Sequence record: NC_070980.1
Source: Escherichia phage vB_EcoP_SU7
DNA length: 64,000 nucleotides
Reading direction: 5' to 3' (one strand)
Made by a program: the position numbers and the translations under genes. Below, one piece after another: positions 2,114 to 49,286 of this stretch. The notes below the pieces were generated by a model. It was given only the letters and a program-made list of their open reading frames with translations. It did no database searches and was not told where the DNA came from. Position 1 is the stretch's first letter; each line of letters opens with the position of its first letter.

Positions 2114-2332
2114 ATGAAAATGATGAAACAGGTAACTTATGGTCTAGCTTGCTTAGGGACAGGTTTTGTGATTTCCACAGCAGTACCTGTAAATGCAGTA
2201 GGCTCTCATTCTATTATAGAAGCTCCTGTAGAGAAGCTTAGTTCTCAATGTAAACAAAGGACCATTCAAAATAATTTGGTTGTTATTTGCCCAGACGCTC
2301 AATCTTCAGCTCTGAGAAAAATTCTTCCTTAA
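2114..2332 (+). CDS. small exported/membrane protein (possible lysis accessory protein)
   Basis: 72 aa with N-terminal hydrophobic segment; RBS AAAGGAG; sits immediately upstream of the lysozyme. Confidence 0.45.
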   Translation: MKMMKQVTYGLACLGTGFVISTAVPVNAVGSHSIIEAPVEKLSSQCKQRTIQNNLVVICPDAQSSALRKILP

Positions 2333-2365: not shown

Positions 2366-2857
2366 ATGGACGCTATCGCATTGCCGCCTGTACAGATGAG
2401 CCTAAGTCCGGCTGGTATGGAGTTTATCATGAAGCATGAAGGCATGAGAACTAAAGCCTATAAAGACTCCGCTGGAATCTGGACTATATGTGTAGGGGCT
2501 ACGCGCGATATGAATGGGTATCCAGTAAGACAAGGATTAACGTATTCTATAGAGGATTGTCTAGCTCTGCTAGATAGAGACACACAAGACTCTGTTCGTG
2601 CTACTCAGAAAAACATAAGAGTTCCTATGCTAGCTCATGAATTTGATGCTGTCACTTCTTTCAACTTTAATGTTGGTGGTGGTGCTTTGTCAGCTTCAAA
2701 ACTTAGGAAAGTGATCAACGGAGATGTGAAGGGTGATGTTTACTCAGAGTTCTTACGTTGGGATAAGATAACTGTTAAAGGTGTAAAGCAGCGGAGTCCG
2801 GGACTTCACAATCGCAGGGTTGCAGAAGCAAATCTATACACTACAGGAAAATATTAA
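2366..2857 (+). CDS. GH24 lysozyme (T4/lambda R-type muramidase), probable endolysin
   Basis: HEG…AYKD…G.WTICVG catalytic region; RBS AAAGGAGG; 163 aa. Confidence 0.85.
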   Translation: MDAIALPPVQMSLSPAGMEFIMKHEGMRTKAYKDSAGIWTICVGATRDMNGYPVRQGLTYSIEDCLALLDRDTQDSVRATQKNIRVPMLAHEFDAVTSFNFNVGGGALSASKLRKVINGDVKGDVYSEFLRWDKITVKGVKQRSPGLHNRRVAEANLYTTGKY

Positions 2858-20968: not shown

Positions 20969-21193
20969 TTAAACTACACAGAATAAATACATTGCTGTTT
21001 CAGGGGAAGGTATGTGGTCACTAGGATATCTAACCCTAATCCACTCATCATCTTCTGCTACATAATAAGCCCAATAAGACCCATTTTCATTAATAAAGAA
21101 CTTGAAGGTACAACCAAAGATTTGGTTATTGTGTTCCCATACTGCATGAAACTGAGTAACACCTTCTGGTATTGTAAGTTCCGCTCTGATCAT
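20969..21193 (-). CDS. hypothetical protein
   Basis: 74-aa ORF in operon context. Confidence 0.4.
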   Translation of the reverse strand: MIRAELTIPEGVTQFHAVWEHNNQIFGCTFKFFINENGSYWAYYVAEDDEWIRVRYPSDHIPSPETAMYLFCVV

Positions 21194-21456
21194 TGTATTC
21201 CTCTCTCCTTTAGAGCTTTAAGCAAACCGTTGTGGTTAGCGGCACAGGTTGTATAAGTGTCCTGATACCACTCGAGTGTTGTTGCAAGTGCTACTCCCTG
21301 TCCACTCTGAAGTAAAGGGAGGTCTACATCACATTCAGCTTTTAGGTTTGTTGGTAAGGGCATTAGCTGCCTGCTGTTGTCGCTCGTTGAACAAGCCATC
21401 AAACTAGAAGCGAGAAAAATCACCAAACAACTCTTTTGCTTTTTCTTTGTAAGCAT
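21190..21456 (-). CDS. lipoprotein, candidate outer-membrane spanin
   Basis: Signal peptide with lipobox LMAC; short mature part with Pro and Cys; lies downstream of the candidate inner-membrane spanin. Confidence 0.4.
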   Translation of the reverse strand: MLTKKKQKSCLVIFLASSLMACSTSDNSRQLMPLPTNLKAECDVDLPLLQSGQGVALATTLEWYQDTYTTCAANHNGLLKALKERGIQ

Positions 21457-21790
21457 TTTCTGCACCCTCTTGAGTGCTGTGATAACCAAGCCAAATTACT
21501 TTGTTTTGATATCCGATGCGAGCACTCCATTTGTTAATATCCGACCTGTACCCTACACCTTTTATTCCAGTTAAAGAGTTCTTTTGAACTATTTTGTTGG
21601 CATTATTAAGGACAGGTGTTGCTCTTCTTAGATTGCTCCAAGAATTATTAGATTTGTCTAAATCTTTATGGTCTATTTGAAAATCAGGAATCTCTCCAGT
21701 TTTGATATACCAAGCAATTCTATGAGCTTTGTACTGTTTATATTGATAGGTAATCACTGTATAGCCATCTGTGGCTTTACAACCTGCCAC
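21404..21790 (-). CDS. HNH homing endonuclease with AP2-like DNA-binding domain
   Basis: IDHKDLDKSNNSWSNLR (HNH) and GIKGVGYRSDINKWSARIGY…GYHSTQEGAENAY (AP2-like). Confidence 0.6.
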   Translation of the reverse strand: MAGCKATDGYTVITYQYKQYKAHRIAWYIKTGEIPDFQIDHKDLDKSNNSWSNLRRATPVLNNANKIVQKNSLTGIKGVGYRSDINKWSARIGYQNKVIWLGYHSTQEGAENAYKEKAKELFGDFSRF

Positions 21791-21885
21791 CTTTCCAGCG
21801 AATCTTGAATTCCACTGAGCGCTCTTATCCTCAGAATGTTTCCAGTAGAGAAGACCAGAAACCTCATCGTAAGATAGATATTTAA

Positions 21886-22227
21886 CTAATTCTTTAATTT
21901 CAGTGCCTCCGCTGCTTGTTGCTGTCGTTCATTGAAAAGTCCTACATACTCATCACTAGCACACACATTGTAAAAAACTGGCTTAGTCTTTTCATAATGC
22001 ATCTCTTTGTAAATAGTTTCCGTGTTCTTCTTCCAGTTAGATAAACCAGTCAGAACTTTCTGAGCCACTTCATCAGCAGCCTTAGCTCTCTCAACCTCAA
22101 TCTCTTGCTGTTTCTTCTCATGGTCAAGAGCATTACTATTACTTCTGTATTGCTCAAACTTGACACCACCAAAGAAAATAATAGCTGTGAAAATAAGAAA
22201 GCCTATATTGTTTTGAAGCTTTTCCAT
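21886..22227 (-). CDS. type II membrane coiled-coil protein, candidate inner-membrane spanin
   Basis: N-terminal TM (IGFLIFTAIIFFGGV) then charged coiled coil; ATG at 22227. Confidence 0.4.
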   Translation of the reverse strand: MEKLQNNIGFLIFTAIIFFGGVKFEQYRSNSNALDHEKKQQEIEVERAKAADEVAQKVLTGLSNWKKNTETIYKEMHYEKTKPVFYNVCASDEYVGLFNERQQQAAEALKLKN

Positions 22228-22240
22228 TTTAACTCCAACG

Positions 22241-22264
22241 AAAAAAGCCACCCGAAGGTGGCTA
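22241..22264 (-). terminator. rho-independent terminator (minus strand)
   Basis: GCCACC-CGAA-GGTGGC stem with U-run on the minus-strand transcript, after the 22287 gene end. Confidence 0.5.
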
Positions 22265-47034: not shown

Positions 47035-47844
47035 TTATACAATCTGGAGTTTAGAGGAGAATTTATCCGCTTCTTTAACATCGTTACTGTTGATGATGTT
47101 GTGAAGCTTTTCAATTGGAAGGCGAGAGTGAAGTGACATCAATACTTCCATATCACAGCCTTGAACAACCTTATCAACTTGCTCATAAACAAACTTGCGG
47201 GTTGACTTCTCGCCAATCCAGAAGTTAGAAAGAGAACGATATTCAATACCGTAATCTTTGTAGCGAATGGCAGAAGCCTTTCCGTATAACTCTTTACGAC
47301 GAGTATCTTTATCCATGATCACAGCTGGCAAGGACAGGAAGTAATCACACAACACACCTAACATCATTTGAGTCTGACGACTAATTTCCAGCGTACCAGT
47401 GACGCCAAGGTGAACATGACCACCAGCAGTACGCAGACCTTTGTCTGTCGCTACTGGAGATGGGTTTTTCTGACCAGTGAAGGCGTTGAAATCAGGAGTA
47501 CAACCAAATACAAAGGCTGACGGATGGAAAGATTCCATCTCTTCTGAAGTGAACACATGAGAGCTAATCCCAAGTGCTGCCTCCATGCCACGTTCATTGA
47601 GAACTTTGTTAGTCAGATCAATACCACGCTGAATGTTATCATTAAACGCTTCAAACCCTTTCTGTGGGTTAATATCGAACTCGGCCAGAACGTTGTCTTC
47701 TTGAAGACGAACATCAGGGGCCAGATCAATTTTGTTGTCTTTAGAGCAGCCCAGCTTACCAGCCACAGAGGTGATAATACCAGAAGCAGTACGAACAAAC
47801 ATTTCCGGATCCGACCCTATTAAGAATTTACGTTTAGTAGTCAT
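47035..47844 (-). CDS. hypothetical protein, possibly a second carboxylate-amine ligase-like enzyme
   Basis: IGSDPEMFV and GGHVHLG motifs; assignment weak. Confidence 0.3.
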   Translation of the reverse strand: MTTKRKFLIGSDPEMFVRTASGIITSVAGKLGCSKDNKIDLAPDVRLQEDNVLAEFDINPQKGFEAFNDNIQRGIDLTNKVLNERGMEAALGISSHVFTSEEMESFHPSAFVFGCTPDFNAFTGQKNPSPVATDKGLRTAGGHVHLGVTGTLEISRQTQMMLGVLCDYFLSLPAVIMDKDTRRKELYGKASAIRYKDYGIEYRSLSNFWIGEKSTRKFVYEQVDKVVQGCDMEVLMSLHSRLPIEKLHNIINSNDVKEADKFSSKLQIV

Positions 47845-48311
47845 GCTTTAGTCCAACCTTTATGAGATAGATAGTTTTTAAATCTGCCACTGTGCACAGC
47901 GCCCATGTGGCCTTGATGTAAGTCGTTGCTTCTACAGAAGTCTTTAAGATTGTATATTGTTACAACCTCGCCATCTGGAGATCTAAACTTCCAAAATCTA
48001 GCATTCCCTTTCACAGCGTTTTCTTCACTGGTCAGAAGTTGGAAATTACTTGGGTGGTTATTAAGTTTATCGCCATCGATGTGATCAACAGTCATACCAT
48101 CCGGAATAGGCCCAATAAACAATTCATACATAAGTCTATGTAATAAAAAGTTCCTTGTTATCTTTTCAGGAGCCTGAACTGTTGTAAACTTAAGATAACC
48201 ATCTTTATCAGGAAACAGTTTCCTCTGTTTCCCTGTTCTTGCATGGAATATACTACCGTCTTCGAACACCAAGAAGGTAGCAACTCCGACTACTAACTCC
48301 CTAAATTCCAT
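47841..48311 (-). CDS. HNH homing endonuclease
   Basis: VDHIDGDKLNNHPSNFQLLTSEENAVKG. Confidence 0.6.
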   Translation of the reverse strand: MEFRELVVGVATFLVFEDGSIFHARTGKQRKLFPDKDGYLKFTTVQAPEKITRNFLLHRLMYELFIGPIPDGMTVDHIDGDKLNNHPSNFQLLTSEENAVKGNARFWKFRSPDGEVVTIYNLKDFCRSNDLHQGHMGAVHSGRFKNYLSHKGWTKA

Positions 48312-48335
48312 AGAGAACCAATAAGGAAAGCACGC

Positions 48336-49286
48336 TTAGTCATTGTAATACTCCACGAGTTCATCAAAAAGGGAAACAACACGAGCACCAGCTTCTTCTG
48401 GTGTCATTGAGGAAGGTACTGCTTGCATCAGACGTTCGATAAAACTTCGAACAGTAATTCTGTCCATACGCTGATCTAATACTTCTCGCTTGTGACCTGC
48501 ACAAGTTGACCAGAGACGTAACCACTCACTCATACTCTCATAATGGTCAGGGTCTTGGTCACGACGACGTGCCATACGACGGAGAACTCCATCATTATGG
48601 TTTCGTACATAACCATCTCGGTTGTCATCAACACCGAATACATTCTGAACCCATACGTTTTCAGAAAATTCATCAGTGGTGCAAATTAATGGCAGAAATG
48701 CAATTGCACTCATGTCGCCATCAAAATAAGTCGCTGCTGACTCATCGGTTGAGTCTACGTCATTACTATAACACCAGCGACCAAAGAAGTTACGACTTAA
48801 ACCAGCTAAGCGTAGAGCTAAACCGATTCGTTGTCGCTTAAGCAACTCTTCCTTGTCTTGTACGCCTTCCTGAAGGAACTCCATTCCATTAAAATCACCA
48901 TCCAAATAGCTACGGATGGTCATTAGTCCAGTAAACACCTTGTCTGCTGGATGGTTTCGAAGGTTCACGGCAATGGAGTTCACCGAAGTGACAGAGAACA
49001 TATCTTTATAGCAAGACATTGAGTTAAAAATATCTGTTGCTTCAACTAAAGCTCTTTCGATATCTTTAGCTGGCACGCCATAAAAATTGTGAGGCCAGAA
49101 GTTAATAACTTCAATTTCTGAAGTTCTATCACGAAGGCTTGTTCGGTTACGACTTTCACCGTTAATGTCTGTAACAGAATACATGTGCATACAGTTAAAA
49201 GTACCAAAGCAAGCTCTTCCTTTGAACACTGACTCACCGAAATCCTCTGCCGGTGTTACCGGAGCAATCGATGCGGAGATTGACAT
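48336..49286 (-). CDS. hypothetical protein (cluster member)
   Basis: 316-aa ORF, no motif recognised. Confidence 0.5.
   Translation of the reverse strand: MSISASIAPVTPAEDFGESVFKGRACFGTFNCMHMYSVTDINGESRNRTSLRDRTSEIEVINFWPHNFYGVPAKDIERALVEATDIFNSMSCYKDMFSVTSVNSIAVNLRNHPADKVFTGLMTIRSYLDGDFNGMEFLQEGVQDKEELLKRQRIGLALRLAGLSRNFFGRWCYSNDVDSTDESAATYFDGDMSAIAFLPLICTTDEFSENVWVQNVFGVDDNRDGYVRNHNDGVLRRMARRRDQDPDHYESMSEWLRLWSTCAGHKREVLDQRMDRITVRSFIERLMQAVPSSMTPEEAGARVVSLFDELVEYYND

Follow-up and report, generated by a model that had tools for sequence, protein, structure and literature searches.

The locus described here lies in a 64,000-nt stretch of Escherichia phage vB_EcoP_SU7 (NC_070980.1), hereafter called the window, and consists of a predicted two-component spanin pair, a protein of the inner membrane (i-spanin) plus a lipoprotein of the outer membrane (o-spanin), with the gene of a putative HNH endonuclease between them. 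All three minus-strand open reading frames (ORFs) that an earlier note on this DNA had placed at the locus are present, and they are given here together with the segment that was inserted into it:

21886-22227, minus strand: predicted i-spanin, 113 aa, with an ATG after GGAG and a match to phrog_1152 'Rz-like spanin' at E 1.5e-32
21404-21790, minus strand: HNH ORF from its first canonical start, the GTG at 21790, 128 aa
21404..21898, minus strand: HNH homing-endonuclease ORF in its longest candidate form, 164 aa if read from the ATT at 21896-21898
21190-21456, minus strand: predicted o-spanin, 88 aa, starting MLTKKKQKSCLVIFLASSLMAC followed by STSD, its mature part starting CSTSDNS
21397..21943, minus strand: inserted cassette, 547 nt in place of the 'CA' of the allele that is free of the homing endonuclease gene (HEG); target GATGAGTATGT^CAGCTTGTTCAACG

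The two spanin genes are 429 nt apart, and the gap holds the HNH gene. The spanin region of the window is 96% identical to that of Escherichia phage vB_EcoP_PAS59 (PAS59) and 94.5% identical to that of the BASEL phage Bas86, both of them phiEco32-like podophages of the subfamily Gordonclarkvirinae, and the window, which is collinear with Bas86 positions ~11.7-74 kb, is judged from its sequence to be a phiEco32-like coliphage of the same subfamily.

The i-spanin has an N-terminal membrane helix at residues ~8-22 (nt 22162-22206), with a hydrophobic core at residues 8-18 (IGFLIFTAIIF) that reaches a Kyte-Doolittle value of 2.81, the 19-mer at 4-22 having a value of 1.60. The single-sequence AlphaFold2 model of the protein is made of helices 2-89 and 92-112 (mean pLDDT 72.5), the membrane region being helical. 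Hydropathy, helical model and the phrog_1152 match agree with the earlier description of this ORF as a membrane protein with spanin features, and the protein is 34% identical to the i-spanin annotated by the Center for Phage Technology in the Citrobacter phage Maleficent. The product of the second ORF is 33% identical to the o-spanin annotated by the same center in Maleficent and matches phrog_2425 at E 1.7e-23 and, weakly, phrog_456 'Rz-like spanin' (E 0.008). Its lipobox, which the earlier note had called as well, is MLTKKKQKSCLVIFLASSLMA before C-S-T and fits a PROSITE PS51257-style pattern, with Ser and no Asp at +2, as expected for sorting to the outer membrane, and we take this product to be a predicted outer-membrane lipoprotein homologous to annotated o-spanins. 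A lipobox scan of the six frames of the 64-kb window returned four loci, among which 21190-21456 is the sole credible one; two of the other three are antisense (one of them certainly inside the tail-fiber gene at 93-2024) and the signal region of the third is poor. The complete Bas86 genome has no further spanin in its annotation, so that neither the window scan nor this annotation offers the true spanin pair elsewhere that would have spoken against the earlier reading.

The o-spanin is called from an internal Met (that of ...RQLMPLPT) as a 57-aa 'hypothetical protein' in the records of PAS59, Bas86, EK010 and phage vB_EcoP-101114UKE3 (UKE3). This short call, equivalent to 21190-21363 (minus strand) in the window, drops both the signal peptide and the lipobox and is a systematic annotation error. 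One KM01 record names the same protein 'Appr-1-p processing enzyme family protein'.

The HNH gene is a rare occupant of this site. In a census of 151 related phage records it was found at the spanin site in seven, which represent six phages, and the other 144 align across a clean gap, which bears out the earlier proposal that the gene is an insertion between the spanins. The alignment reference for the HEG-free allele was UKE3, the closest HEG-free relative, whose flanks are 99.7% (300 nt on the left) and 100% (205 nt on the right) identical to those of the window and whose overlapped pair is intact. In the HEG-free relatives the two genes overlap by 116 nt, the o-spanin beginning in the +1 frame within the 3' end of the i-spanin gene; in UKE3 the i-spanin ends in DEYVSLFNERQQQAANALTNKPKS and a stop codon, and 116 nt upstream of that stop begins the intact ancestral o-spanin start, MKRLSQFFTMCVLVMSMSAC followed by STSD. 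Between the window and UKE3 the i-spanin is 95% identical in protein sequence and the o-spanin 83% overall, the mature part of the latter being 100% identical in both protein and DNA. The overlapped architecture extends to Maleficent, a Felix O1-like phage, and the spanins of phiEco32, ECBP2, KBNP1711 and NJ01 have been catalogued as overlapped two-component systems, their i-spanins being grouped with Felix O1 in the JH2/Felix O1 i-spanin family (Kongari et al. 2018, PMC6139136). The insertion site lies in the most conserved stretch of the locus, a dual-coding block of ~70 nt; nothing else in the cassette-free locus still matches Felix O1-like phages, and the block does so at ~85% nucleotide identity. 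An IMG/VR scan with the exact 20-mer TGTGCTAGTGATGAGTATGT matched a single locus and returned no new insert variants at the site; the match lies at 1596-1615 of an unrelated GC-rich contig (IMGVR_UViG_2541047080_000001), which at 1326-1830 carries an uninterrupted overlapped spanin pair, with VCASDEYVRLFN within the i-spanin and a +1-frame o-spanin that begins MKWLSRYLVPCVLVMSMCGC. Because this 20-mer is exact in an unrelated contig, the dual-coding block is conserved at the nucleotide level far beyond Gordonclarkvirinae.

The cassette is always 547 nt long, with the same boundaries, in 7/7 HEG-bearing sequences, and it occurs in three variants: A1 (the window and PAS59), A2 (Bas86 and Bas87) and B (EK010, E20-1 and KM01), lineages A and B being ~66% identical in nucleotide sequence. 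The i-spanin body and the mature o-spanin are intact in all seven sequences. On the HEG-free allele the insertion point falls two codons upstream of the lipobox Cys and 21 codons before the i-spanin stop, that is, in a place where both genes are coding, and both of the interrupted gene ends have a counterpart within the cassette and a remnant beside it:

21886..21945, minus strand: replacement i-spanin C-terminal tail, VGLFNERQQQAAEALKLKN and a stop codon, a recoded copy of the ancestral VSLFNERQQQAANALTNKPKS and stop
21906..21910, minus strand: candidate endonuclease ribosome-binding site, GGAGG, 7 nt upstream of the in-frame ATT and inside the replacement tail
21942..21995, minus strand: remnant of the ancestral o-spanin start, MKRLSQFFTMCVLVMSM and a stop, in the +1 frame within the i-spanin gene and ended by a junction-made TAG
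21391..21456, minus strand: new o-spanin signal peptide and lipobox, MLTKKKQKSCLVIFLASSLMAC, within an alternative frame of the HNH C-terminus
21335..21400, minus strand: displaced ancestral i-spanin tail, DGLFNERQQQAANALTNKPKS and a stop, in an alternative frame of the mature o-spanin N-terminus

Both remnants sit in DNA that is still coding in another frame. The first 58 nt of the cassette finish the i-spanin with the replacement tail and a stop codon, so that its final 19 codons (from 21943) come from the insert. Over the 15 codons shared by the replacement and the old tail there are 15 nucleotide differences and only two amino-acid differences (13/15 residues kept), and when 15 substitutions were placed at random 200,000 times, the amino-acid changes were never as few. 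Lineage B has the same recoded pattern, its tail reading VSLFNQRQEEAKRVLKSKE before the stop. Compared by sequence only, the replacement tail differs from the right half of the target at 7/18 positions.

At the other end, the last ~60 nt of the cassette bring the start codon, the Lys-rich n-region, the hydrophobic core and the lipobox of a new signal peptide, the first 21 o-spanin residues being encoded by the cassette. An AGAGGG stands 8 nt upstream of the o-spanin ATG. The new segment is 66 nt long and shares 53 of them, in an alternative frame, with the C-terminal codons of the HNH gene, which read AYKEKAKELFGDFSRF and a stop; the HNH stop (21404-21406) is 53 nt inside the lipoprotein ORF, close to the overlap of about 50 nt given before. 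Lineage B has an AAGGAG and a GTG start, in the alignment column of the lineage A ATG, and the signal peptide (M)HIKKKLLSCTGILLAFSLSAC; a lipobox is present in all three cassette variants. The possibility that a signal-like frame is a generic by-product of the C-terminus of this HNH family was considered and rejected, because the same alternative frame is not signal-like in the related HNH genes of phiEB49 and T5 (hegI); of its elements, only the Lys-rich start is matched there, in part by phiEB49 and not at all by T5. Since the signal peptide is kept in both lineages and the corresponding frame of phiEB49 and T5 is not signal-like, it appears to be selected rather than incidental. The insert as a whole codes in three overlapping frames, and all but ~7 nt of it are coding.

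The gene between the two replacement segments is a putative homing endonuclease. Of the earlier label 'HNH-AP2', the HNH part stands, Pfam HNH_3 scoring 51.8 bits against a cut-off of 24.8 bits, and the AP2 part is weak, its 28.7 bits (E 1.7e-6) being under the curated cut-off of 33.3 bits. Residues D83, H84, N91, N92 and N105 of the HNH motif are invariant with T5 hegI and phiEB49 gp51. Both of these proteins align to the ORF from the ATT region onward, and the phrog_99 score goes from 2.5e-48 to 3.5e-58 once the 35 codons upstream of the first canonical start are added. The HNH frame is open from 10 codons upstream of the ATT at 21896-21898, and between the upstream stop and 21790 it contains no ATG, GTG or TTG. 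This ATT is 8 nt before the i-spanin stop, and at the aligned columns lineage B has AGAGGG and then ATC. The ratio of nonsynonymous to synonymous substitution rates (dN/dS) is ~0.07 for HNH codons 6-36 between the window and Bas86, similar to the remainder of the gene; for the HNH gene it is ~0.13 between the window and Bas86 and ~0.04 between EK010 and KM01, and on these ratios the endonuclease is apparently under purifying selection. We infer that the endonuclease has a weak non-AUG start at the ATT, overlapping the end of the i-spanin gene, and the arrangement suggests non-AUG initiation or coupling to the i-spanin by termination and reinitiation. The N-terminal ~35 HNH residues, which are conserved and in frame, correspond to 21791-21910 (minus strand) of the window; in this region an internal ATG is confined to EK010, a GTG standing there in E20-1 and KM01.

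The relationships among cassettes and among their flanks do not coincide. The cassettes of Bas86 and Bas87 are 100% identical and their flanks 92% and 94.6% identical, whereas between the window and Bas86 the flanks are 97-99.5% identical and the cassettes 90%. EK010 and E20-1 combine a UKE3-like left flank (93%) with a KM01-like cassette (95.6-95.8%) and a right flank that is 97.1% identical to KM01 and 98.5% to PE006, a mosaic that looks like co-conversion during homing. Because the phylogenies of cassette and flanks conflict, homing is indicated. Downstream of its o-spanin the window has a gene of 74 aa (20969-21193; phrog_30479, unknown function), in whose place EK010 and E20-1 carry a different gene, of ~112 aa, annotated 'ribonucleotide reductase NrdA-like', so the region to the right of the spanin locus is also a recombination boundary. 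Free-standing endonucleases are unusually abundant in this phage group: the Bas86 genome has six HNH endonuclease genes scattered over its structural and replication modules, and the BASEL paper attributes the main synteny breaks to homing-endonuclease insertions.

Taken together, we consider it probable that an HNH cassette homed into a pair of overlapped spanin genes and brought with it replacements for both of the ends that it broke, no splicing being involved, which turned an 'overlapped' spanin architecture into a 'separated' one. The core of the earlier note, a spanin pair split by an inserted HNH gene and unlinked from the endolysin, holds on the points tested. The sequences show the insertion with its boundaries, both replacement coding segments and their conservation, the mosaic relationships and the lack of a recognizable intron, whereas spanin activity, lipidation by way of the new signal peptide, the activity and target of the nuclease and its start codon are deductions. 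In the ancestor, as in most relatives, the o-spanin would have begun, in the +1 frame, 116 nt before the i-spanin gene ends, and a free-standing cassette of 547 nt would have entered the dual-coding block two codons upstream of the lipobox Cys. Insertion there truncates the i-spanin tail and removes the o-spanin signal peptide unless both are repaired, and the cassette would have repaired the former with its first 58 nt, as a recoded tail and stop, and the latter with its last ~60 nt, as a start, n-region, core and lipobox read in an alternative frame of the HNH gene. During co-infection, the endonuclease would cut HEG-free alleles at or near the conserved dual-coding block, and repair would copy the cassette, at times with flanking DNA; the recoded tail may also make the occupied allele a poor target. 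A selfish endonuclease that brings along substitutes for both genes could in this way settle in dual-coding DNA, the kind of target under the greatest constraint and hence the most conserved, and the o-spanin would be a probable example of a signal peptide born by overprinting.

Several observations weigh against this interpretation and are best considered together with the alternatives. If the 547-nt insert were a self-splicing (group I) intron, splicing would restore the overlapped mRNA and the replacement ends would be irrelevant, and HNH endonucleases are often intron-encoded. In the BASEL records of Bas86 and Bas87 the Rz-like spanin is entered as a 'join' of two pieces on either side of the HNH gene, which implies that the BASEL curators considered splicing; moreover, in both lineages one can draw a splice that keeps the frame, has a U ahead of the 5' site and ends the insert in G (GAGTAT/GT...TAG/TTT, the slashes marking the sites), and the boundary rules of group I introns do not suffice alone to dismiss it. 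We nevertheless regard an intron as highly improbable. No group I or group II intron was matched in Rfam at E<=10 in the window or in the EK010 cassette, representing both lineages, the only matches being chance ones of the snoRNA/miRNA type, and because all but ~7 nt of the insert are coding there is no room for a ribozyme core. Nineteen codons inside the supposed intron keep the i-spanin frame, its amino acids (0/200,000 simulations) and its stop in the three variants, and both lineages have retained, at the 3' end of the cassette, a ribosome-binding site, start codon and lipobox; splicing would make the conserved tail, stop, ribosome-binding site, start and lipobox pointless, which counts against it. 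The 'join' is also used in Bas86 for another HEG-split gene, one with a recoded duplicate bearing its own ATG, and the BASEL paper makes no mention of introns. Although the i-spanin is sometimes annotated as a spliced gene, the evidence thus favors two ordinary unspliced genes. The direction of the change could be questioned as well, the separated, HEG-bearing state being ancestral and the overlapped state of most relatives resulting from loss of the endonuclease, and for the comparable T5/Shivani pair Kongari et al. (2018, PMC6139136) did not settle on a direction. To this we give very little credence here, since the overlapped form is found in ~95% of the related records, in distant Felix O1-like phages and in the unrelated GC-rich contig, whereas the HEG-bearing genomes are scattered over different backbones, with incongruent cassette and flank phylogenies. 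The HEG-bearing alleles still hold the truncated ORF of the old signal peptide and the displaced old tail, and an exact deletion would need to produce anew, in the +1 frame of the tail of the i-spanin, a signal peptide that works.

A further alternative accepts the insertion and supposes that it crippled the spanin, at the o-spanin signal or the i-spanin tail, lysis now proceeding without it and the intact ORFs being recent leftovers. Spanins are dispensable for plaques under many laboratory conditions, as with Rz/Rz1 of lambda. No spanin is detectable in ~13% of the surveyed phages of Gram-negative hosts (91/677; PMC6139136), and the new lipobox, LMAC, has an unusual Met at -2. We hold this to be unlikely all the same, for both of the ~66%-identical lineages keep an open tail, stop, ribosome-binding site, start, hydrophobic core and lipobox, the replacement tail is strongly conserved at the amino-acid level, and the mature o-spanin and the i-spanin body remain intact in every HEG-bearing sequence. 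It is very doubtful, too, that the two small membrane proteins have some other early or middle envelope function and are not spanins at all, which would explain their neighborhood of replication and sigma-factor genes. The pair lies on the opposite strand and 19 kb away from the holin and endolysin genes, the best family of the o-spanin, phrog_2425, is labelled 'unknown function' whereas its match to a spanin PHROG is weak, and we found no experimental test of any member of this spanin family. On the other hand, the pair shows, in sequence, every hallmark of a two-component spanin, has homologues among the manually curated i-/o-spanin pairs and is the sole such candidate in the genome, as judged by the window lipobox scan and the Bas86 annotation; unlinked spanin genes are well known, as in T4 (pseT.3/pseT.2; PMC6139136) and phage Privateer (PMC7881722). 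Coming back to a homed cassette that repairs two functional spanin genes, the remaining points that tell against it concern its parts. Spanin function, lipidation and nuclease activity are deduced from sequence, and the HNH frame that overlaps the signal-peptide frame confounds the conservation seen in the latter. The 35 conserved N-terminal residues of the HNH protein have no canonical start codon before them, so the gene could be decaying in the lineage of the window, although dN/dS argues otherwise. The tail copy may first have been gained by duplication of target-adjacent sequence followed by recoding, or by capture from a diverged allele.

The principle has a precedent, and current understanding is not overturned by our results, as it was described for T5-like phages in 2018 (Kongari et al., PMC6139136). 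The spanin genes of T5 overlap by 70 bp, and a GIY-YIG homing endonuclease lies in the ~700 bp that separate those of Salmonella phage Shivani and of Yersinia phage phiR201, the proteins differing from those of T5 only at the i-spanin's far C-terminal end and the lipoylation signal of the o-spanin, and it was pointed out that the new o-spanin N-terminus must still encode such a signal (Kongari et al. 2018, PMC6139136). A free-standing HEG between spanins that are overlapped in relatives is therefore common to the window and to Shivani and phiR201, whereas the endonuclease class (HNH_3 against GIY-YIG) and the spanin family (phiEco32/JH2, distinct from that of T5) differ. In the window, unlike the T5/Shivani case, distribution and mosaicism allow an argument for insertion as the direction. 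Its replacement tail is nearly a copy, in recoded form, whereas that of Shivani is, by its published description, merely 'different', and the signal peptide is nearly all new and read in an alternative HNH frame, whereas in Shivani 'a few residues' differ by the same description. The window is a second, independent instance of the overlapped-to-separated event described for T5-like phages, and what it adds is the argument on direction, the recoded near-copy tail and the overprinted origin of the signal peptide. We found no paper tying spanins to HNH endonucleases in Kuravirus or Gordonclarkvirinae. The spanins of phiEco32, ECBP2, KBNP1711, NJ01 and the Felix O1-like phages (SpaninDB) are homologous to the i-spanin body and the mature o-spanin of the window; these pairs are overlapped, in contrast to the separation of 429 nt and the 19 i-spanin and 21 o-spanin residues encoded by the cassette. 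The near-isogenic UKE3 and window alleles amount to a natural experiment, differing only in architecture, in the last residues of the i-spanin and in the o-spanin signal peptide.

Rz/Rz1 of lambda is the experimentally characterized two-component spanin and is presumed to disrupt the outer membrane once the endolysin has acted. It consists of the same parts, a helical type II protein of the inner membrane and a small outer-membrane lipoprotein read in the +1 frame, but no sequence similarity is detectable between lambda Rz/Rz1 and the family of the window, Rz1 is fully embedded whereas this family is overlapped, and the function of the latter is predicted. As for endonucleases that soften the effect of their own insertion, Bonocora et al. 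reportedly described in 2011 the bypass element of T4 gene 60 and mobA as a mobile cassette. The 50-nt bypass element of gene 60 and the mobA endonuclease form one mobile cassette (bioRxiv 10.1101/2022.08.31.505936). Here too, an endonuclease travels with a short sequence that neutralizes the damage of insertion, the device being translational bypassing in T4 and, in the window, plain coding sequence for a duplicated tail and a replacement signal peptide. In Aeromonas phage Aeh1, with mobE in nrdA ('genes in pieces'), a free-standing HEG interrupts a coding region with no intron or intein, and element-borne sequence helps to keep the host function (PMC3045599). One gene became two reassembling polypeptides in Aeh1, whereas in the window two overlapping genes were unlinked, each still giving one polypeptide.

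A second locus of the window resembles the first, and it is listed here:

47035-48343, minus strand: second HEG locus, with the HNH gene at 47841-48311, the downstream gene at 47035-47844 and a remnant at 48314-48343

This HNH gene (47841-48311, minus strand) sits after codon 10 of a 'COOH.NH2 ligase' gene, which in the HEG-free phage HC-25922 reads ATGACTAAGCGTGCTTTCCTTATTGGTTCT directly followed by GACCCTGAAATG at the insertion site (MTKRAFLIGS followed by DPEM). A ligase stub of 30 nt is retained upstream of the HNH gene in the window, and at the 3' end of the HNH gene a recoded copy of 11 codons, ATGACTACTAAACGTAAATTCTTAATAGGGTCG (MTTKRKFLIGS), whose ATG overlaps the HNH stop, restarts the ligase. 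The insertion is sporadic, being present in 5/56 records. The second HEG shares the logic of the spanin site, in that a recoded copy of the broken gene end is carried along, and because a second endonuclease comes with a recoded start of its target, such duplicates of gene ends may be a general way of colonizing genes in the absence of introns and inteins. We tentatively propose, with somewhat less than even confidence, that the spanin-site cassette is a gene-healing mobile unit, composed of a tail that holds the endonuclease ribosome-binding site, an endonuclease with an ATT or ATC start and an overprinted de novo signal peptide, and that recoded gene-end duplicates could be a general and so far unrecognized strategy of endonucleases.

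The other lysis genes of the window lie far from the spanins, among the tail genes:

2114-2332, plus strand: putative holin, 72 aa, with a match to phrog_11161 'holin' (E 1e-40) and a holin label in the Bas86 annotation
2366-2857, plus strand: endolysin of the GH24 type (lysozyme family), matching phrog_7 at E 7.7e-46 and annotated as endolysin in Bas86

The endolysin is ~19 kb from the spanins, the distance given previously for the lysozyme, and this separation is the standard layout across the subfamily, not special to the genome of the window. The earlier statement that no canonical holin stands beside the lysozyme has to be corrected, as the putative holin ORF is directly upstream of the endolysin. 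In this 72-aa product a single segment of moderate hydrophobicity (residues ~11-29) precedes a polar tail that contains two Cys, and residues 10-13 read GLAC. Because it has a single hydrophobic segment, 'holin' is here a family label and not a demonstration, and the product could be a holin with one transmembrane domain, a signal-anchored protein or a secreted protein.

The spanin genes lie in an early/middle block that adjoins a sigma-factor gene, and one further feature precedes them:

22246..22263, minus strand: terminator-like hairpin, AGCCACC-TTCG-GGTGGCT and then a T run, directly upstream of the i-spanin ribosome-binding site

This strong hairpin sits between an upstream gene of 246 aa and the i-spanin start, and the record of phage 4E8 has a terminator annotated at the same place and a predicted promoter inside the o-spanin gene.

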